64,000 nt of DNA from Dehalococcoides sp. JdFR-56 (GCA_002011495.1 MTNR01000036.1:15239-79238); one strand, 5' to 3'; counted from the stretch's first letter, positions 3,988-23,291 are shown. Notes: a model not told the origin generated them from the letters alone. Program-made: numbers and translations.

Positions 3988-5405
3988 CTATCCCGTATGA
4001 GGTAGCGTGTTATTTCATCGGAATATATGGGCTCTCCCCTCAAGACCTTATTAGCTGCGATAAAAAATCTTATCGGCAGTCCGACATATTTGGTCAGATT
4101 CTTCTCCGCTGGGTTCTCGCCCGGAGGGAGGTCTTCATCTGCCAAGAGCTGTCCGGTCCGGTAATCGAGCAGCCTGTGCCACCAGTTGGATCTGGTCCGG
4201 TAAAACTTATCAAGTACCTCCAGCCCGTCTTTGACATTATCTAAATACACGTCTTTTTGGGTCATGTCAAATAGTTTCAGGAAGCAGGTGTATAAGTCTA
4301 CGTTCTGGTCAATCTTGCTGCCAAAGTGGACAGGCATCCCATCTTTGAATTGCTCTGGAATCAGCTTGGTGGTTTTATTTTTCTGATTGATCCAGAAACG
4401 GGCACACTCCTCGGCGAGTCTGAGAAATTTTTCCTCCCTCAGGATCCGATAAGCATCCAGGTAGGCATCAATGATGGCAAAGTTCTGCGTTTTATCTACA
4501 ATCTGGCTCCCCAGTTTTCCCTTTCTAGTGTCCCATATCCCATAATAGCTACCATCTTCTCTCCGGAACCTGAGCAGTGCCGAAAACCATCTCTCTATAT
4601 TTTCTTTTAAGGTGGCCTCTCTGGTGATCTCGTAAAGATAGAGTATGGCGTAAATCATATTGGTGTTGGACTTCATCAGTTCAGTGTGGCGGTGAACAGG
4701 AAGGTTGCGAAGATACGGGTGATAACCGATGGCGAAAAGCCCGCATTTCTTGAAAAGTGGTGTATTTAGCCAGGAGGCGATGATTTTTTTCGCTCCCTCT
4801 AGGTATCTGTTTTCCTTGGTGATGGTGTAGAGTTCAGCTAGTTCCTCGGCAAACAGGCCGCATACCGCTGAGAAGGAGGAAGTGGTCAGAATGCCACGTT
4901 TCAGCGCCGGGATAACCTTATTCGGCACCATGCCGTGGTGCCTATTGATATAAGTTAGAATGGCATCGGCCACTCCATAGGCCAGGTCTAAGTAGTGCTG
5001 CGCACCAGTTAGCCGATATAGTTCCACCAGTCCTAGAAATGCGTCCTGATGCTCATATAAGGATATTACCTGCCATTCTCTTCTTGGTATCTTTTTGTTT
5101 TTGTTATGGTCATATTGGGTGACAAAAAGGCCGCAGGGCAGCTTAAAATAAGTCTCCCACAGGTTCATTTGCCTGGTGGTGAATTCTAAACATTGCTTAT
5201 CACCAAACTCAGTGCCATACCAGCAGATAAAGACAAGATAATCACCGATATCATCAAATTCACTGATAACTGGTCCCCAGCACTCTTCTCGGGATGAAAA
5301 CCACCGGGAGGCTACCAGACCAAGCTGGTTCTGAGTTGCCCGATACATAATAAAGTCGCAGGCATCCTTGGCCAAGCTTTGTGATAATTCAATATAAGCA
5401 GTCAT
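3984..5405 (-). CDS. Hypothetical protein, possibly an alpha/alpha-toroid (six-hairpin) fold
   Basis: 473-aa ORF coupled by a 4-nt overlap to the downstream GT4. Helix-pair segments recur (YLDLAYGVADAIL, YLEGAKKIIASWL, FLRLAEECARFWI, YLDNVKDGLEVLDKF). No catalytic motif recognised. Confidence 0.35.
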   Translation of the reverse strand: MTAYIELSQSLAKDACDFIMYRATQNQLGLVASRWFSSREECWGPVISEFDDIGDYLVFICWYGTEFGDKQCLEFTTRQMNLWETYFKLPCGLFVTQYDHNKNKKIPRREWQVISLYEHQDAFLGLVELYRLTGAQHYLDLAYGVADAILTYINRHHGMVPNKVIPALKRGILTTSSFSAVCGLFAEELAELYTITKENRYLEGAKKIIASWLNTPLFKKCGLFAIGYHPYLRNLPVHRHTELMKSNTNMIYAILYLYEITREATLKENIERWFSALLRFRREDGSYYGIWDTRKGKLGSQIVDKTQNFAIIDAYLDAYRILREEKFLRLAEECARFWINQKNKTTKLIPEQFKDGMPVHFGSKIDQNVDLYTCFLKLFDMTQKDVYLDNVKDGLEVLDKFYRTRSNWWHRLLDYRTGQLLADEDLPPGENPAEKNLTKYVGLPIRFFIAANKVLRGEPIYSDEITRYLIRDR

Positions 5406-5462: not shown

Positions 5463-6614
5463 TTAATTTGGCTTCTTGCAAGCCAGGTTGGAAATGAATA
5501 TTTCAATGACTTTTTCCTTGCTGAAATGCTTAATCCTTTCCCGTCCTTCTCTTTTCAATACTTCCCTTAATTCATTATCTTTCAGTATATTTATGACTTT
5601 CTTGGCGAAACTTGACATATCCCCTCTTCTAACAATGCAAATCATCTGGTTTTCGGTCATGAGATCTTTTGTTCCACCGACGTCCGTAGCCACGAAAGGC
5701 ACATCCATTGCCATCGCCTCTAATATAACTCTGGGAAAGCCCTCTTCCTCCGAGGGCATGATAAGTAAATCTGCGGCAGCATAGTATTTGGGAATCTCCT
5801 GGTTGGGGACACTACCGACTAGTCGCATTGAATCTTCCAGGCCATTCTCGGCAATTTCTTGTCTCAGCGTTTCCATATAGGGGCCCTCACCAACGATAAT
5901 AAAGAAAACATCTGGAATGGTACGGCTAACTTCCTTGGCAATTTTCACTAAATATTGCGCTCCTTTTCTGGGAGAAAGCCAGTGGACAAAGAGAACTACC
6001 TTTGAAGTCATCGGCAATTCCAGTTCTCGCCTGAGCTGTTTTCCATTGAACTTGTCTATCTTGAACCGTTCGAGGTTAACCCAGTTGGGCATTATCTTGA
6101 TCTTATGCTGCGGGAGACCAAAGTTGGCAACATAATAATTTCGCATCGTTTCCGAGCCAGTAACTAGGAATTGTACCAGACGAATAGCAAGAAGGAAAGC
6201 GTAGTCGTCAAACAGTTTCGCTTTGATAGCTTTCCAGCTTAGTGCCCACTTGTGCATGTAATCTTTTTTGAGACCACAGTGCCAGTAAAGTGTGTGCCCA
6301 CCAAACAGCCGGGTTACCAAAGAAGCAGCTATGGCACTGAAATAAGACTGATGCACATAAAAGGTCTTGTAACCCTTAAGACGAATGATAGTAAATATGG
6401 CAAGCCGTTCAAGTAAGCCTAAAGCGAAACTGGCAAATCTAAGGACATAAACACTCTTCATGGCTTTGAAATTAATTGGCTCTACTGCGTCCTCAATTAC
6501 TAGAAATATATCAATTGATCGGCTAAGGTCATCAATAAGTTCATAAATGTGGAAGTAATGCTCACTACTCTTAGGGGTATACTGTGGGAGGATATAGCAA
6601 AGTTTTTTACTCAT
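5463..6614 (-). CDS. Glycosyltransferase family 4
   Basis: EEGFPRVILEAMAMDVPFVATDVGG (E-x7-E) motif. Confidence 0.8.
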   Translation of the reverse strand: MSKKLCYILPQYTPKSSEHYFHIYELIDDLSRSIDIFLVIEDAVEPINFKAMKSVYVLRFASFALGLLERLAIFTIIRLKGYKTFYVHQSYFSAIAASLVTRLFGGHTLYWHCGLKKDYMHKWALSWKAIKAKLFDDYAFLLAIRLVQFLVTGSETMRNYYVANFGLPQHKIKIMPNWVNLERFKIDKFNGKQLRRELELPMTSKVVLFVHWLSPRKGAQYLVKIAKEVSRTIPDVFFIIVGEGPYMETLRQEIAENGLEDSMRLVGSVPNQEIPKYYAAADLLIMPSEEEGFPRVILEAMAMDVPFVATDVGGTKDLMTENQMICIVRRGDMSSFAKKVINILKDNELREVLKREGRERIKHFSKEKVIEIFISNLACKKPN

Positions 6615-7777
6615 TCTTTAGCCTCGTTGCTCTCCAATAGGCTTTTCCAGACCTCAACCAACCTTTTCGTGTTGGCCGCAAAATCACAGTAGGCCATGGC
6701 TTTTTGGTATCCTTCCTGACCCATTAGCTTTGCCTTTTCCGGATGGCTGAGTAGCTTTATAATCCTCCCGGCGAGCTGCGCTGAGTCATCAACAGCTACG
6801 ATATATCCACTTTCACCGTCAGTCACGATGTCTCTAGCACCACCCACGTCCGTGGCGACAATTGGCTTTTGGGCGAAGGCTGCCTCCATCAAGGTCCGGG
6901 CAAAGCCCTCACTCCACGAGGGCAGAACCACCAGGTCGCAGGCGGCATAGTAGGCGGGGAGGTCATCGTAGGGAATGATGCCCAGAAACCTGACATTCCC
7001 GGCGATGGCCATCTCCCCGCACATTTCCTCAAGGTGCGCTTTCTCCGAGCCACTGCCAATGATGACAAACAGCGTCTTAGGATGGGTGGACAGCACCAGC
7101 TTGGCTGCCCTCAAGAGGTTCGGTATATTTTTTACCTTTTCAAGGGCACCGACGAAGAGAACCATTCGGTCATATTCACTCCCGAGCAAACTTTTCCTGA
7201 TCCTATCTCCATCCGCGTGGACAAATTTGGCGATGCTTTCGGCACTGGGGAGCGCCGGAATCACCACCACCTTTTCTGGGGGGATATTGAGTCTTTCGGT
7301 CAGGAGCACCTTACTTTGGGTGGCATCCGTTCTGACCAGGTTTGCCTTTCTCAATGTCCATCCCATGATGAGCCGGTAACACCGGTGAAGCCAACTTTGG
7401 CGCAGCCACCAGTCACTGAAAATCTCAAGGCCAAAGGCATTTATCTGCAGCTTACAGCCGAACTCTTTGCGCAATAAAACTCCCAGGAAGCCAAGCAGCG
7501 CATCCTGAGTGACGATGATATCCACCCTGCTTTTGCGGCAAATCCTTCTGGCTTTGAGATATGACCTGAGCCAGGAAAGCACCTTATGGCCGTAGCTTGG
7601 GTAGATGGTCAATTTCTCGCTCACCTTTATCTCAGCCTGGCGCTTGGCCGCCGGCGCTGGCACCAGAATATCCAGCCTGTCCAGATGCTCCGCGTAATGC
7701 TGGTGTCTTAGCAGAGTGTCACCAATTTGCCTTCCCTCAACGAGCGTCTTGTCATAGCTGAACATCAGGATATGCAT
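6611..7777 (-). CDS. Glycosyltransferase family 4
   Basis: SEGFARTLMEAAFAQKPIVATDVGG motif. 4-nt overlap with the downstream gene. Confidence 0.8.
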   Translation of the reverse strand: MHILMFSYDKTLVEGRQIGDTLLRHQHYAEHLDRLDILVPAPAAKRQAEIKVSEKLTIYPSYGHKVLSWLRSYLKARRICRKSRVDIIVTQDALLGFLGVLLRKEFGCKLQINAFGLEIFSDWWLRQSWLHRCYRLIMGWTLRKANLVRTDATQSKVLLTERLNIPPEKVVVIPALPSAESIAKFVHADGDRIRKSLLGSEYDRMVLFVGALEKVKNIPNLLRAAKLVLSTHPKTLFVIIGSGSEKAHLEEMCGEMAIAGNVRFLGIIPYDDLPAYYAACDLVVLPSWSEGFARTLMEAAFAQKPIVATDVGGARDIVTDGESGYIVAVDDSAQLAGRIIKLLSHPEKAKLMGQEGYQKAMAYCDFAANTKRLVEVWKSLLESNEAKE

Positions 7778-18509: not shown

Positions 18510-19388
18510 ATGCTATACTCTATGGAGCAAGCGGGGTATCCGAACGCCATGAGGATGAGAGTTCAAAGTGACCTTATTTGGCTCAATATCGTAACTCTTT
18601 TGCTCATCGCCATTATCACCCTCTTTCCCTCCAGTGTCCTGCGGGTGATTCTCGGCTTGCCCTTTATACTCATTTTCCCTGGATATGTGCTGACCGCGGC
18701 TCTCTTTCCCCGAAGGAGTGCTCTGGATGGTCTGGAGAGGCTGGCATTGAGCTTTGGTCTGAGCATCACCGTGGTGTCACTCATTGGGCTAGCCCTCAAC
18801 TATACTCCCTGGGGCATCAGGCTATATCCCGTTCTTATTTCCTTGACTGTGTTCATTGCCATCTTGTCCTTAGCTGCCTGGTATCGGCGGCGCCGGCTGG
18901 CTACAGCGGAGAGGTTTGCCCTCTCCTTCCGTTTGAGCCTGGCCCCCTGGCGGGGGCAGAGCCTTATTGATAGAGTGCTATTCATTATTCTCATTATGGT
19001 GATACTGGGAGCCCTGGGGACGCTGGGCTATACTATCGCCACCCCTCAAGTGGGGGAGAAGTTCACCGAGTTCTATATCTTGGGACTGGATGGCAAGGCG
19101 ATAGACTATCCCAAGGAGATGAAGGTGGGGGAGCAGGGGAGGGTAGTGGTGGGCATCATCAACCGGGAGCAGGAACAAGCAAGTTACCGGGTAAAGATAA
19201 TGGTGGGTGGCCGGGATGATGGTGAGGTGGGGCCGCTTATGCTTGGGCCTGAGGAGAGGTGGGAGGAGGTAATTAGCTTCACCCTGCAAAAGGCTGGGAG
19301 CGCTCAGAAGGTGGAATTTCTACTGTACCGAGGCGAGGAAAGCCAGCCCTACCGTGAATTACACCTCTGGGTTGATGTGGTGGATTAA
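18510..19388 (+). CDS. DUF1616-like membrane protein (family mostly archaeal)
   Basis: Four or five N-terminal TM helices, then TEFYILGLDGKAIDYPKEMKVGEQGRVVVGIINREQEQASYRVKI, which matches my recollection of the DUF1616 C-terminal domain. The true start may be ATG 18522 or 18552. Confidence 0.55.
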   Translation: MLYSMEQAGYPNAMRMRVQSDLIWLNIVTLLLIAIITLFPSSVLRVILGLPFILIFPGYVLTAALFPRRSALDGLERLALSFGLSITVVSLIGLALNYTPWGIRLYPVLISLTVFIAILSLAAWYRRRRLATAERFALSFRLSLAPWRGQSLIDRVLFIILIMVILGALGTLGYTIATPQVGEKFTEFYILGLDGKAIDYPKEMKVGEQGRVVVGIINREQEQASYRVKIMVGGRDDGEVGPLMLGPEERWEEVISFTLQKAGSAQKVEFLLYRGEESQPYRELHLWVDVVD

Positions 19389-20437: not shown

Positions 20438-20518
20438 GAGACTGGTTCACCCAAGTTCAGATTGCATTCCTAGATTACTATGAGTTCAACGTCCAGTCAA
20501 GCTGGCTCTCTTGACAGA

Positions 20519-20568
20519 TTGACAATATAGGTGTTATCATTATTATGAGCATATGCTCAAAATAATGA
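20519..20568 (+). promoter_or_regulatory. Candidate promoter (TTGACA-16-TATTAT) overlapped by a 32-bp near-perfect palindrome (operator)
   Basis: Tandem TTGACA at 20511-16 and 20519-24. TATTAT at 20541-46. The palindrome TCATTATTATGAGCAT|ATGCTCAAAATAATGA at 20537-20568 pairs at 15 of 16 positions. It ends 13 nt before the DUF134 ATG. Confidence 0.5.
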
Positions 20569-20581
20569 TGGGGCTGCTACC

Positions 20582-20965
20582 ATGCCCAGACCGATAAAGT
20601 GGCGCCGAATCGCCTTTATACCGGAAGCGACTTACTTCAAGCCCGCTGGTATATCCTTGCGAGCTCTGGAGGAGGTTTGTCTCTCCATGGAAGAAATTGA
20701 GGCGATACGCCTTAAGGACTTGGAAGGTCTGGAGCAGGAAGAGGGAGCTGAAAAGATGAATATCTCACGCCCCACCTTTCAACGGGTGCTGGCATCAGCC
20801 CGGCAGAAAATAGCTGAGGCGCTGCTCTACGGCAAGGCGATAAGGATTGAGGGAGGTAACTTTGAGGTGGCGCCGCAGATGATGCCCCCGGCACGCATGG
20901 CTGCTGGTTGGGGCGGACGCCATGGAAAGAGGTGCTGGAGACGGCCACAGACTGGAGCGCGATGA
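20582..20965 (+). CDS. DUF134 (UPF0251) predicted DNA-binding protein
   Basis: N-terminal MPRPIKWRRI..P....FKPAGI, then EEIEAIRLKDLEGLEQEEGAEKMNISRPTFQRVL (HTH-like) and GKAIRIEGGN. ATGA overlap with the next gene. Confidence 0.7.
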   Translation: MPRPIKWRRIAFIPEATYFKPAGISLRALEEVCLSMEEIEAIRLKDLEGLEQEEGAEKMNISRPTFQRVLASARQKIAEALLYGKAIRIEGGNFEVAPQMMPPARMAAGWGGRHGKRCWRRPQTGAR

Positions 20966-21690
20966 TGAAAATCATCGATGATTTGCTGTCAACATTGGAT
21001 TACGAGGCGCCGGTAAGAGAGATACGCCAGGGGCCTTTTCAGACGGCGGTGCTAACTCGCCGCTGTGGGCTGGCAACCACGCTTCATGAGCCCGGACCCC
21101 TCCGCGATAAAATGCCGATAAAAGAGGCTGGCTCCTTGATGGAGAAGAGTGCCCTAGGACTTGCCCGGATGGTTTACTCACCGAGTCCTCTTGAGGCAAC
21201 CATTGGGATGGCGACCATCAACTCGCTCCTTGATATCGATGAGGCGCGTTGTGTTGAGCTTAACGCCGCTGACCTGCTTACTGAGAAGGGAAGGGATAAG
21301 AAAATCGCGCTGGTTGGCCATTTTCCCTTTGTGCCCAAGCTACAGCAGGTGGCTGGGGAACTCTGGGTGATTGAGCGAGAGCCGCAGCCGGGGGACTTTG
21401 CCGAAAGCCAGGCGGAAAGGCTGATTCCCAGGGCGGAAGTCGTTGGCATCACTGGCAGCGCCTTCACCAACCATACCATTGAGCGCTTGCTTGAGTTATG
21501 CCCACCACAGGCTTACGTGGTTGTCCTGGGAGGCACTACCCCCTTATCACCCATCCTGTTCGATTACGGGGTAGATGCCGTTTCCGGTGCCCAGGTGACT
21601 GACCCAGAGATGGTGCTGCGTTACGTTAGTCAGGGAGCAACCTTCCGGCAGCTCCAGGGAATCCGGCGCTTGACTATGATGAAGAAATAA
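20962..21690 (+). CDS. DUF4213/DUF364 Rossmann-like protein (putative metal chelation)
   Basis: MMKIIDDLL...V.EIRQGPFQTAV...CGLATT N-terminus. Later KKIALVGHFPF and VVVLGGTTPL. The start is chosen at the ATGA junction with DUF134. Confidence 0.55.
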   Translation: MMKIIDDLLSTLDYEAPVREIRQGPFQTAVLTRRCGLATTLHEPGPLRDKMPIKEAGSLMEKSALGLARMVYSPSPLEATIGMATINSLLDIDEARCVELNAADLLTEKGRDKKIALVGHFPFVPKLQQVAGELWVIEREPQPGDFAESQAERLIPRAEVVGITGSAFTNHTIERLLELCPPQAYVVVLGGTTPLSPILFDYGVDAVSGAQVTDPEMVLRYVSQGATFRQLQGIRRLTMMKK

Positions 21691-21709
21691 ATGAAAGGAG
21701 GTGAGCGAT

Positions 21710-21976
21710 ATGGCGTACCAATTTGGCCCAAGACTTGGTTCCAGAGGCGGCATGGGATTTGGATTTAGAGGCAGTTCTCCTCCCTGGCCTTATGTGGGTC
21801 GGGGTAGGGGAGGCCTGCCCAGGTGCGGCTACTTCTTGGGTGGAGGAGCAGCATTCGCGCCGCCGGTGACCCAGGAGCAGGAACTCACCTTTCTGAAAGG
21901 TCAGGCGGCCGCGATCAAGCAACAGCTTGAGCAAATCGAGGCCAGAATCAGGGAACTGGAAGCCAGGGAAGAGTAA
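21710..21976 (+). CDS. DUF5320-like small protein (Gly/Arg-rich N-terminus, C-terminal coiled coil)
   Basis: GRGRGGLPRCGYF core, then ELTFLKGQAAAIKQQLEQIEARIRELE. AGGAGG lies 11 nt upstream of ATG 21710. Confidence 0.55.
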   Translation: MAYQFGPRLGSRGGMGFGFRGSSPPWPYVGRGRGGLPRCGYFLGGGAAFAPPVTQEQELTFLKGQAAAIKQQLEQIEARIRELEAREE

Positions 21977-21987
21977 GCGCCAAAACT

Positions 21988-22032
21988 CCATCTGGCGAGG
22001 GCAAATAACGAGAAATCACCTCGGCCAGATGG
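21988..22032 (+). promoter_or_regulatory. 13-bp stem-loop between the DUF5320 and NifX-like genes
   Basis: CCATCTGGCGAGG (21988-22000) pairs with CCTCGGCCAGATGG (22019-22032) with one bulged G and an 18-nt loop. No U-tract follows. Confidence 0.35.
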
Positions 22033-22069
22033 GGTACTTTACATAAAAACATGAGAAGGGAGAGGGTTG

Positions 22070-22465
22070 ATGAAAATTGCTGCGGTATCGGACGATGGGG
22101 CCACTCTCAGCCAGCATTTTGGCAGGGCGCCGCTTTATGTAGTGATTACAGTAGAAAACGGGCGGGTGGTGGGTAAGGAGACGCGGGAGAAGAGTGGGCA
22201 TCATATCTTTGCCGCCCACCACCATGATGTAGTCCCAGAAGGGCGCCACGGCTATGGAACTGGGGCTCAAGTGCGGCATGCCGACATGATCGAGACCATT
22301 GCCGACTGTCAGGTTCTGCTCGCTGGAGGCATGGGCTGGGGTGCCTACGAGAACATAAAGCGCTATAATATAGAGCCAGTGGTTACGGATGTAAAAGATA
22401 TCGACCAAGCGGTGAAACTCCATCTTGACGGCAAGCTAAAGAATTTGACTGAGCTCTTGCACTGA
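22070..22465 (+). CDS. NifB/NifX-family (Nitro_FeMo-Co domain) cofactor-binding-like protein with a His-rich insert
   Basis: MKIAAVSDDGATLSQHFGRAPLYVV and the C-terminal VLLAGGMGWGAYENI are typical of the family. The insert is GHHIFAAHHHD...GRHGYG. Confidence 0.65.
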   Translation: MKIAAVSDDGATLSQHFGRAPLYVVITVENGRVVGKETREKSGHHIFAAHHHDVVPEGRHGYGTGAQVRHADMIETIADCQVLLAGGMGWGAYENIKRYNIEPVVTDVKDIDQAVKLHLDGKLKNLTELLH

Positions 22466-22490
22466 GTGTTTAGCGCTATCCAAAAAGTTC

Positions 22491-23144
22491 ATGATGACAA
22501 ATAAAAGTGATTCACCTTTTGACAACCTAGCTTCAGTTTATGATGCCTGGTTTGAAGGGGAGGGGAGACTGATCTTCGCCACAGAGGTCAGAGCCTTTCA
22601 GGAGATACTGACACTTCTGCCCAAGCCCTGGCTTGAGGTTGGGGTGGGCAGCGGACGCTTCGCCCAGGCGCTGGGCATCCCGATTGGAATTGACCCATCG
22701 GTTAAGCTGCTTGCGATGGCCAGAAAGAGAGGGATAAGCGGCTTTCTGGGCAAGGGTGAAGCCGGATTCTTTAAGGGTGAAAGCTTTGGCACCGTTTTTC
22801 TCATCGTCACCATCTGCTTTGTCAGCTCGCCACTGGCCGTTCTCAAGGAAGCCCACCGCATCCTCAAGGCAGATGGCAAGGTGGTGCTGGGGCTGGTGCT
22901 GCGGGAAAGCCCTTGGGGCCAGTTCTATCAGGCGAGGAAAAAAGAGGGGCATCCCTTCTACCGGCATGCCACTTTTTACAGCTATGAGGAGATAGCCAAG
23001 CTCCTGAAAGAGGCTGGCTTTGCTATGGAGAGGGTGCTCTCCACCCTCTTTCAAAAGCCGAACCAGGTTACCCAAGTGGAAGCCCCACGGGAGCGTTTTT
23101 CTCCTGAGGCTGGCTTTACCGTGATGGTGGCGGGGAAGCGCTAG
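22491..23144 (+). CDS. Class I SAM-dependent methyltransferase
   Basis: WLEVGVGSGRFAQAL motif I, and later LKADGKVVLGL. Confidence 0.7.
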   Translation: MMTNKSDSPFDNLASVYDAWFEGEGRLIFATEVRAFQEILTLLPKPWLEVGVGSGRFAQALGIPIGIDPSVKLLAMARKRGISGFLGKGEAGFFKGESFGTVFLIVTICFVSSPLAVLKEAHRILKADGKVVLGLVLRESPWGQFYQARKKEGHPFYRHATFYSYEEIAKLLKEAGFAMERVLSTLFQKPNQVTQVEAPRERFSPEAGFTVMVAGKR

Positions 23145-23146
23145 CC

Positions 23147-23176
23147 TTGACAGCCACCGAATAAGGGACATAAAAT
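23147..23176 (+). promoter_or_regulatory. Candidate promoter for the tRNA(CAU) gene
   Basis: TTGACA 23147-52, an 18-nt spacer, TAAAAT 23171-76, about 44 nt upstream of the tRNA 5' end. Confidence 0.35.

Positions 23177-23219: not shown

Positions 23220-23291
<72 letters not shown>

Follow-up and report, generated by a model that had tools for sequence, protein, structure and literature searches.

Why do four widespread, little-known protein families, DUF134, DUF364, DUF5320 and the NifX-like proteins found outside nif operons, meet in one compact operon within a 64,000-nucleotide stretch of Dehalococcoides sp. JdFR-56 DNA (GCA_002011495.1, MTNR01000036.1:15239-79238; the whole stretch is called the window below), where a gene for an S-adenosylmethionine (SAM)-dependent methyltransferase follows them? 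A preliminary, sequence-only reading had tentatively seen in these five genes a distinct, ATPase-free module for handling metal cofactors. Our analysis favours, with a rough probability of 0.55, an autoregulated operon that handles metal or metal-sulfide species in the manner of the orange protein (ORP)/MrpORP system of Desulfovibrio and of IssA of Pyrococcus furiosus, and that is present here in a reduced form. Clusters of this type are known yet poorly understood, and the comparison links all four families to this still-unexplained class of metal-sulfide systems of anaerobes. As far as the searched literature shows, the DUF364-containing form in Dehalococcoidia, its ATPase-free reduction, the histidine-type NifX-like protein and the candidate DUF134 operator have not been described. 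Dehalococcoidia are abundant subsurface anaerobes with a heavy need for iron-sulfur (Fe-S), molybdenum, nickel and cobalt enzymes, and a dedicated metal-handling regulon would therefore matter for their physiology.

Open reading frame (ORF) calling on the window gave five plus-strand ORFs, all co-directional, spanning positions 20582-23144, and the deposited gene calls of a Dehalococcoidia metagenome-assembled genome (GCA_011192105.1, DUEM01000005.1) match all five coordinates (Table 1). The first two genes overlap as ATGA at 20962-20965 (ATG at 20962-20964, TGA at 20963-20965), and the later gaps are 19 nt, 93 nt and 25-28 nt, the last depending on whether the methyltransferase starts at 22491 or 22494. 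These coordinates bear out the close packing described in the sequence-only reading, and hidden Markov model (HMM) searches confirmed each of its family assignments. The DUF134 protein scores 84.6 bits on PF02001 against a gathering cut-off of 27, with profile positions 6-97 of 98 covered, and the DUF364 protein scores 135.3 bits on PF04016 (cut-off 23) and 57.6 bits on PF13938 (cut-off 23.5). The margin of DUF5320 over its cut-off is small, yet its orthologues in related loci also match PF17253. The five genes make up a real, selectively maintained unit and, from the spacing, appear to be co-transcribed as one operon.

The absence of nitrogenase genes, also claimed earlier, holds for the annotated part of the window. 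HMM maps together with Pfam-annotated gene calls, covering about 90% of it (31.7-37.5 kb is unannotated), contain no ParA/Mrp ATPase gene, and the annotated calls contain no nifHDK or nifENB gene. The NifX-like protein also falls far below the equivalog cut-offs for nifX (TIGR02663, 20.4 versus 112) and nifB (TIGR01290, 21.2 versus 343.65). On these results a Nif-related role was rejected, and they set the protein apart from the nitrogenase cofactor carriers, even though it shares the PF02579 family and fold of NifX, NafY and the NifB C-terminal domain.

To what larger system, then, do the five genes belong? Homologues of the DUF364 protein number 4444 at E<=1e-5 in a large protein collection. 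Relatives were located in at least 583 species-representative genomes, and the best 80 loci (56-73% identity) were mapped. The locus search used a 15-sequence DUF364 alignment because a 45-sequence alignment was too divergent. Neighbours were mapped by ORF calling and iterated HMMs, whose labels were checked against the Pfam and NCBIfam annotation of representative clusters. Some of these HMMs cross-reacted: the one labelled 'Mrp' caught the MinD/ferredoxin pair, and the one labelled 'L001_81' caught the true Mrp. ParA-type ATPases were therefore pooled in the counts, and the identities of Mrp and the MinD/ferredoxin proteins were set from the annotation of three loci (L005, L087 and L088).

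A DUF134 gene lies directly upstream of the DUF364 gene, on the same strand, in 42/51 Chloroflexota species-representative loci and in 1/24 loci of other phyla. Downstream content was counted, to 8 kb, in the 43 Chloroflexota DUF134-DUF364 loci with at least 2.5 kb of downstream sequence. A NifX-like gene is present in 33 of the 43, ParA-type ATPase genes in 29, and DUF5320 and a small zinc-ribbon protein in 28 each; CoA_binding and AF_2379 genes (16-17/43) and a methyltransferase gene (9/43) are less frequent. The arrangement occurs well above chance. In the three annotated loci, the full cluster begins with DUF134, DUF364, in some cases a ferredoxin, DUF5320, a NifX-like protein, the zinc-ribbon protein and, optionally, EncFtn. 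It continues with two MinD-like ATPases carrying ferredoxin inserts, CoA_binding, an optional AF_2379, a second NifX-like protein, Mrp, the methyltransferase and an optional radical SAM protein. The window's DUF364 clade (56-73% identity, at least 80 species) stands behind DUF134 in an ORP-like cluster, and not beside ABC transporters or in an antibiotic cluster.

The full cluster is related to the Desulfovibrio ORP/MrpORP system and to IssA, a class common in anaerobes whose members probably bind inorganic Fe-S or other metal-sulfide clusters and hand them over. The ORP complex contains Orp9 (MrpORP), two MinD/ferredoxin proteins (Orp3 and Orp4) and the NifX-like orange protein Orp8 (PMC6345978). 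In MrpORP a transferable [4Fe-4S] cluster is held by the P-loop domain and a [3Fe-4S] cluster by the Di-Nase domain; the proposed ligands of the second cluster belong to the motifs CxHFGHCE and CDH, which stand beside a TPPPHxPGxxP motif. ORP itself holds a Mo-Cu sulfide cluster (PMC6345978). The ORP-type small IPR003731 proteins are found outside nif contexts in anaerobes, as is the window protein, which is Orp8-like by its PF02579 match (E 2.7e-15). On the NCBIfam MrpORP model, the full-cluster Mrp reaches 310 bits over the P-loop part (positions 2-234), and the N-terminus of the window NifX-like protein matches the Di-Nase part (positions 265-308). The NifX-like and Mrp pair therefore corresponds to a split MrpORP (Orp9), although the two parts are fused in Desulfovibrio, whereas in Dehalococcoidia they are separate genes in the opposite order. 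The association with MinD/Mrp-type ATPases that the sequence-only reading gave for DUF134, NifX-like and DUF5320 genes is thereby confirmed as belonging to an ORP/MrpORP-type cluster (PMC6345978). DUF134, DUF364, DUF5320 and the methyltransferase are not among the ORP components described in that paper.

Counterparts of the Orp3, Orp4 and Orp9 ATPases are present in most related Dehalococcoidia clusters and absent from the window. Identity between the window NifX-like protein and the full-cluster copy of 131-132 aa that lies directly upstream of Mrp is 56-73%; with the other NifX-like genes it drops to about 25-30%. Likewise, the window methyltransferase is 57-68% identical to those that follow Mrp or end the clusters (nine species loci plus L087 and L088). 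The two genes are thus orthologues of the upstream and downstream neighbours of Mrp, and the methyltransferase, which stands last, is a recurrent cluster member rather than a bystander. By both proteins the nearest relatives are L008, L010, L015 and L017, each of which has a full cluster. It is therefore simplest to suppose that an internal block, from the first NifX-like gene through CoA_binding/AF_2379, was lost together with Mrp, and that the window carries a derived, reduced version of a larger cluster conserved across Dehalococcoidia. That the ATPases are missing at this locus stands as first described; the idea of a distinct module in which DUF364 takes their place does not, since DUF364 and the ATPases share the cluster in most relatives and DUF364 is therefore not a stand-in for them. 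The natural five-gene version may offer a simpler experimental target than a cluster of 12-13 genes.

A second reduced form occurs in five loci (L001-L004 and L006), in the order DUF134, DUF364, zinc-ribbon protein, NifX-like protein and an 81-aa protein resembling the Mrp N-terminal domain (7573-7818 in L001). The 81-aa ORF may be a leftover of a deletion.

If the window operon is a reduction, could it be a decaying, functionless leftover of the full cluster? At least seven full-cluster genes are missing, and the window DUF134 protein is without the C-terminal ribbon common among its relatives. However, every ORF is intact, and a related contig (L086) has the same five-gene order and flanking synteny, with 83-93% amino-acid identity to the window. 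Between the two, the ratios of nonsynonymous to synonymous substitution (dN/dS) are 0.09 for DUF134, 0.14 for DUF364, 0.13 for DUF5320, 0.21 for the NifX-like protein and 0.20 for the methyltransferase, on a par with the 0.12-0.16 of flanking housekeeping genes. All five genes are under purifying selection. The promoter, palindrome and ribosome-binding sites are kept in L086, and L096, a short contig whose end falls inside the NifX-like gene, has the first four genes in unchanged order. Decay is thus extremely improbable, and the reduced operon appears to be a conserved and co-regulated unit.

The evidence for regulation by DUF134 lies upstream of the first gene. DUF134 (UPF0251) is a helix-turn-helix (HTH) protein that resembles sigma-70 region 4 and DeoR-type HTH domains in HMM searches. 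Most of the aligned relatives are 150-180 aa long, with a zinc-ribbon-like C-terminal module (CxxxH...CPxC) and a Gly/Arg tail. The window copy is a short form with a cationic Gly/Arg tail but without the ribbon; it and four relatives make up the ribbon-less group of 120-127 aa. A conserved palindrome of 20-22 bp, TTATGAGCATATGCTCATAA, comes after a sigma-70-type promoter and before the start codon of DUF134. In the window the promoter-like hexamers (TTGACA, 16-18 nt, then TATCAT or TATTAT) match the consensus at 11/12 positions, and the promoter region is conserved in L086, while the sequence further upstream diverges. The palindrome ends 12 nt 5' of the DUF134 ATG, is unique in the window and has no equal in 100 shuffles (0/100).

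The palindrome was followed through the loci L001-L090 and L091-L170. Most related loci, in Chloroflexota as well as Desulfobacterota, carry it, with the consensus ATTATGAGCATATGCTCATAAT, at 10-30 nt upstream of DUF134. The spacing is fixed: in 19/26 related loci the palindrome centre is preceded at 41-42 nt by a TTGACA-like hexamer, which a TAnnAT -10 element follows. The elements invariably succeed one another as -35, -10, palindrome, ribosome-binding site and ATG. Each locus has a single copy of the degenerate core, placed before DUF134, with two exceptions: L020, which is without a DUF134 gene and has the palindrome directly upstream of DUF364; and L083, which has two copies, one before a divergent DUF134 operon and the other before a detached DUF364 gene. 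In a blind search of a metagenome collection, the exact 20-mer matched at least 120 contigs. A DUF134 start adjoins it in 61 of the 80 contigs fetched; by a stricter, domain-based criterion the count is 56/80, and 9 more have DUF134, DUF5320 or a NifX-like gene within 400 nt. Many of these contigs are plain DUF134/NifX-like pairs without DUF364.

These results suggest that: the palindrome is a candidate operator of a DUF134 regulon; its position over the transcription start suits an autorepressor; and its near-invariant arms across phyla, together with several non-compensatory variants, favour recognition of DNA by a protein. DUF134 would thereby gain its first testable handle. No mention of the palindrome or of regulation by DUF134 was found in the literature searched, nor anything pertinent on the DUF134 (UPF0251, COG1342) and DUF5320 families. 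The palindrome could instead act mainly as RNA, as a 5' stem-loop of the mRNA, placed just before the ribosome-binding site, with an effect on stability or translation. It lies downstream of the -10 hexamer and is therefore probably transcribed, it would form a 9-bp hairpin, its central 4 nt vary as a loop might (ATAT, GTAT, GTAA, ACAA, ATAG), and some variants are symmetric (GGGC/GCCC, GGAC/GTCC). However, arms so nearly identical across phyla fit protein recognition better than pairing alone, and several variants, such as GAAC...GCTC and GAGC...GCCC, give A-C mismatches instead of compensatory pairs. Moreover, the palindrome nearly always adjoins the gene for an HTH protein, and it precedes DUF364 where no DUF134 gene is near. 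We consider a predominantly RNA role unlikely and an operator bound by DUF134 the better account.

ORP regulation, by comparison, involves sigma-54 and DVU2106, whereas the window has a sigma-70-type promoter and a DUF134-associated palindrome. A sigma-54 promoter for the operon was rejected, as no GG-N10-GC motif was found in 20438-20581 and no sigma-54 activator adjoins. Sigma-54 activators flank DUF364 in 6 non-Chloroflexota loci.

What the NifX-like protein might bind is suggested by its motifs. Two types occupy the slot upstream of Mrp in Dehalococcoidia. The 112-aa Cys-type carries HFGHCE, PSPEHQPGLLP and CDH and has no His-rich insert. The 131-aa His-type, which reads HFGRAP, GHH...HH...PGERHGY...RH and, at the C-terminus, LH, has lost the motif cysteines and gained histidines. 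The window protein is a stand-alone His-type, not fused to a P-loop NTPase, with SQHFGRAP at the first motif, GHH..HHH..PEGRHGY at the second and LLH at its C-terminus. The His-rich stretch GHHIFAAHHHD, already noticed in the sequence-only reading, is present at residues 43-53, in place of the Cys/His motifs that mark MrpORP's Di-Nase domain. Among 27 homologues of 68-89% identity, H16, H44, H51, H60, H70, H131 and C80 are invariant; H44, H51 and H60 lie within the insert. An AlphaFold2 model, with a mean predicted local distance difference test score (pLDDT) of 82.7, matches the folds of PH0822, TM1816, MTH1175, NafY (1P90), NifX (in 9IAN) and ORP (2WFB; template modelling score 0.67, root-mean-square deviation 2.6). 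Mean pLDDT falls to 67 over residues 41-50, 46 over residues 51-60 and 58 over residues 61-70, with residues 52-58 below 50. This low confidence across the insert suggests that it is a flexible loop.

Proteins of the HypB, UreE and SlyD type bind ions through flexible His-rich loops, and by analogy the His-type protein could be a chaperone or buffer for a divalent metal (Ni, Co, Zn or Cu), with the operon serving metal-ion homeostasis. The replaced Di-Nase cysteines, the six invariant histidines and the predicted flexibility of the insert would agree with this, as would a fusion of a cation-diffusion-facilitator (CDF) protein with a NifX-like domain in relatives and the Fur-family genes inside the cluster in L025 and L036. 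However, in full clusters the gene keeps its slot beside Mrp and the MinD/ferredoxin ATPases, which are Fe-S proteins, and no hydrogenase, carbon monoxide dehydrogenase or urease genes adjoin. A divalent-metal role therefore seems decidedly unlikely. The ligand of the His-type may differ from that of MrpORP.

The comparison with IssA bears on DUF5320. IssA stores thioferrate, has uncharacterised 'IssX' relatives, and consists of an IPR003731 domain with a disordered cationic tail of 70 aa (15 Gly, 14 aromatic residues, 11 Pro, 7 cationic residues, 1 Cys, pI 10.7; PMC5524996). The N-terminal 52 aa of the window DUF5320 protein have 15 Gly, 6 Arg, 9 aromatic residues, 7 Pro, 1 Cys and no acidic residue, with a pI of 11.4, and thus resemble the tail in composition alone. 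Domain and tail form one polypeptide in IssA, whereas the window NifX-like protein has no tail and the similar region sits on the separate DUF5320 protein. DUF5320 adds a coiled coil, predicted over its C-terminal 36 aa in the sequence-only reading, which IssA is not reported to have; the window NifX-like protein adds the His-rich insert. A fusion of the two families in L088 (PF02579 86 bits; PF17253 37 bits, 37.2 to one decimal) reproduces the IssA architecture, and fusions thus suggest that DUF5320 and the NifX-like domain together recreate it. DUF134, zinc ribbon and NifX-like domain are fused in two other loci (L074 11364-12224 and L081 11322-12269), and the NifX-like protein of L058 carries a GRG tail (6520-7095, minus strand). 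The DUF134-NifX and NifX-DUF5320 fusions tie these families together.

At the same time, Gly/Arg-rich stretches were seen on four cluster families: the DUF134 tail, DUF5320, some NifX-like proteins and the small zinc-ribbon protein. Sites include 4724-5365 and 5399-5647 in L088, 6520-7095 (minus strand) in L058, and 20870-20965 and 21710-21865 in the window. Their recurrence hints at a shared binding partner or co-assembly.

DUF5320 is preceded by AGGAGG 11 nt 5' of its ATG and followed, in the 93-nt gap before the NifX-like gene, by a strong hairpin. An intrinsic terminator was considered for this element and rejected, as there is no T-run on its 3' side and the scan reported a terminator on the opposite strand only. 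In L086 (about 4757-4805) the hairpin is present but its inner part is inverted, with an alignment score of 32 to the reverse complement versus 20 for the direct strand, which looks like a small flip between inverted repeats.

The part played by DUF364 is the least certain. The protein has an enolase-N-like and a Rossmann-like domain and matches Protein Data Bank entries 3L5O (E 1.5e-18) and 3NPG (E 1.9e-7). Dhaf4260 (structure 3L5O), Orf5 and the DUF364 protein of Methanococcus maripaludis have the same DUF4213+DUF364 architecture. Across 15 aligned sequences, a GHFPF motif and E138, an acidic residue after the second strand, are invariant. A second, divergent DUF364 paralogue of about 252 aa follows the first in six loci (L007, L067, L009, L013, L019 and L024) and scores 37-39 bits on PF04016 in the two copies scanned (L024 and L067). 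In L007 (3907-5468) and L067 (5741-7314) a gene for a ModA-like substrate-binding protein is inserted between the two paralogues.

Might DUF364 and the methyltransferase together yield a small molecule derived from SAM, such as a metal chelator of the aminocarboxypropyl or azetidine type, which the other genes bind or regulate, in what would be a small biosynthetic cluster? Just one DUF364 enzyme, Orf5, has been characterised; it has Tyr61 and Glu204 as catalytic residues, and from 4''-methyl-SAM it forms methyl-azetidine carboxylate and methylthioadenosine (PMC12930334). The Rossmann-like domain of DUF364 is partly similar to methyltransferases (PMC2954201). The invariant E138 would agree, and full clusters end in a methyltransferase, often with a small radical SAM gene. 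However, that radical SAM protein (254 aa) falls below every family cut-off, and no cobalamin-dependent radical SAM C-methyltransferase resembling BnvC, the partner of Orf5, was found in the window cluster or within 10 kb; non-ribosomal peptide synthetase and other tailoring genes are likewise missing, and the cluster consists mostly of Fe-S and ATPase proteins. We hold such a pathway to be very unlikely as the purpose of the operon. The methyltransferase was also tried as a member of the DVU_1556 family (NF045667) and rejected at 35.7 bits against a cut-off of 155; it is a generic class I enzyme (PF08241).

A link of DUF364 with metal genes agrees with earlier genome-context reports (PMC2954201; bioRxiv 10.1101/2024.03.05.583561), and it raises the question of which metal is handled. 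Instead of Fe-S clusters, the operon might serve molybdate, tungstate or derived thiometallates for the maturation of molybdo- or tungsto-enzymes, with DUF364 acting on the oxyanion or a carrier and the NifX-like protein holding a Mo/W-sulfide, as ORP holds its Mo-Cu sulfide cluster (PMC6345978). In M. maripaludis the DUF364 gene is part of a modABC operon and cofit with nifH (bioRxiv 10.1101/2024.03.05.583561), and transporters of Mo, W, V and Fe are among the STRING neighbours of DUF364 (PMC2954201). Among our loci, a ModA-like gene directly follows DUF364 in 2/80 (L007 and L067) and is nearby in four more. On TIGR01256 (cut-off 62.5) the L067 protein scores 81.5 bits, above the cut-off, and the L007 protein 60.4, just below; one gene call (P0187) fuses a ModA-like fragment to DUF364.

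On the other hand, only 6/80 loci have a ModA-like gene, and the gene calls show no transporter or molybdenum cofactor (Moco) biosynthesis gene in the window cluster or within 10 kb of it; the annotated genes of the window flanks include no metal transporter. An Rfam scan of the window gave only two tRNAs, so that neither a Moco nor a cobalamin riboswitch is involved; with no corrinoid genes in the neighbourhoods either, the hint of a corrinoid link made earlier found no support. The EncFtn, Fur and NifU genes accompanying relatives' clusters indicate iron, although these genes, taken with ModA-like and CDF-NifX fusion genes, point to metals in general; NifU and the CDF-NifX fusion come from loci of other phyla. 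A specific Mo/W role is accordingly possible but some way from probable, and metal or metal-sulfide handling of the ORP/MrpORP/IssA kind is preferred.

Under that preferred reading, DUF134 would be a dimeric HTH protein that binds the palindrome over its own transcription start and so regulates itself, as comparative genomics indicates. The NifX-like protein would bind a metal or metal-sulfide species through the conserved histidines on its flexible insert, and DUF5320 would provide in trans what IssA-type proteins have in cis, a cationic tail rich in Gly and aromatic residues that holds anionic metal-sulfide material; both steps are suggested by homologues and fusions. DUF364, with a nucleotide- or SAM-binding fold and under the same operator, might carry out a small-molecule step together with the methyltransferase, which is the weakest step of the scheme. 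With the MinD/ferredoxin and Mrp ATPases apparently lost from the locus, delivery would rely on proteins encoded elsewhere or be dispensable. Of the metal-cofactor-handling module first proposed, the families, the conserved unit and the link to ATPase clusters thus stand and its distinctness falls, while metal-cofactor handling itself is what we infer from the homologues.

Several points weigh against this scheme. For the ORP complex itself no physiological role is settled, and one in cell division has been put forward (PMC6345978). The window NifX-like protein has lost the Cys/His motifs proposed as MrpORP cluster ligands (HFGRAP versus HFGHCE, LH versus CDH; PMC6345978), and its ligand may therefore not be an Fe-S cluster. 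The sole characterised DUF364 enzyme is a SAM-derivative cyclase of antibiotic biosynthesis (PMC12930334). The hairpin divides the first three genes from the last two, with co-transcription judged from spacing only. Finally, the transcript would include the palindrome, which could work there as an RNA hairpin, and DNA binding by DUF134 is deduced from comparative genomics.

More tentatively, the observations could be joined in one bolder picture, which we regard as rather improbable as a whole: DUF134 would be the sensor-regulator of an anaerobe-wide regulon with a near-invariant 20-22-bp operator, sensing the loading of the NifX-like protein (compare the DUF134-NifX fusions); the NifX-like protein and DUF5320 would together act as an IssA-type store in two pieces, holding anionic metal-sulfide polymers; DUF364, controlled by the same operator, would be a SAM-lyase-like enzyme making a SAM-derived ligand or modification that this chemistry requires; and the five genes would be the minimal natural form.

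Table 1. Features of the operon and its upstream region (window coordinates; E, E value; MFE, minimum free energy).
Feature	Position	Strand	Evidence and remarks
Sigma-70-type promoter-like site	20511..20546	+	-35 TTGACA at 20511 or 20519; -10 TATCAT or TATTAT ending at 20540 or 20546
Operator-like palindrome ATCATTATTATGAGCATATGCTCAAAATAATGAT, 34 bp, near-perfect	20536..20569	.	Core 20543-20562, TTATGAGCATATGCTCAAAA; abuts or overlaps the -10
DUF134 (UPF0251) HTH protein, 127 aa	20582..20965	+	PF02001 E 7.7e-24; putative autoregulator
DUF4213+DUF364 protein, 241-242 aa	20962..21690	+	PF13938 E 1.6e-15, PF04016 E 1.6e-39; translationally coupled to DUF134
DUF5320 protein, 88 aa	21710..21976	+	PF17253 31.9 bits versus gathering cut-off 27
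Hairpin in the 93-nt DUF5320/NifX-like gap	21985..22035	+	MFE -31.7 kcal/mol (21970-22075), z -3.9, 0/200 shuffles as stable
NifX/NifB-family (Nitro_FeMo-Co, IPR003731) His-type protein, 131 aa	22070..22465	+	PF02579 E 2.7e-15
His-rich insert GHHIFAAHHHDVVPEGRHGY, NifX-like residues 43-62	22196..22255	+	Conserved His, low model confidence
Class I SAM-dependent methyltransferase, 216 aa, last operon gene	22494..23144 (start 22491/22494)	+	PF08241 E 4.8e-12, PF13489

The flanks of the operon are unrelated to the cluster, with a glycosyltransferase/polysaccharide island upstream, and oxidoreductases, HflX and amino-acid and purine biosynthesis genes downstream. The island occupies positions 1-20437 as a 20-kb block of glycosyltransferase, sugar-epimerase and polysaccharide genes, with a G+C content of 0.45-0.52 versus 0.54-0.59 in the rest of the window; a gene for a DUF1616 membrane protein (18510-19388) closes it and adjoins the operon. 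Directly 3' of the operon lies a tRNA-Met (CAT) gene at 23220-23291, which has a promoter-like site of its own at 23147-23176 (TTGACA, 18 nt, TAAAAT).

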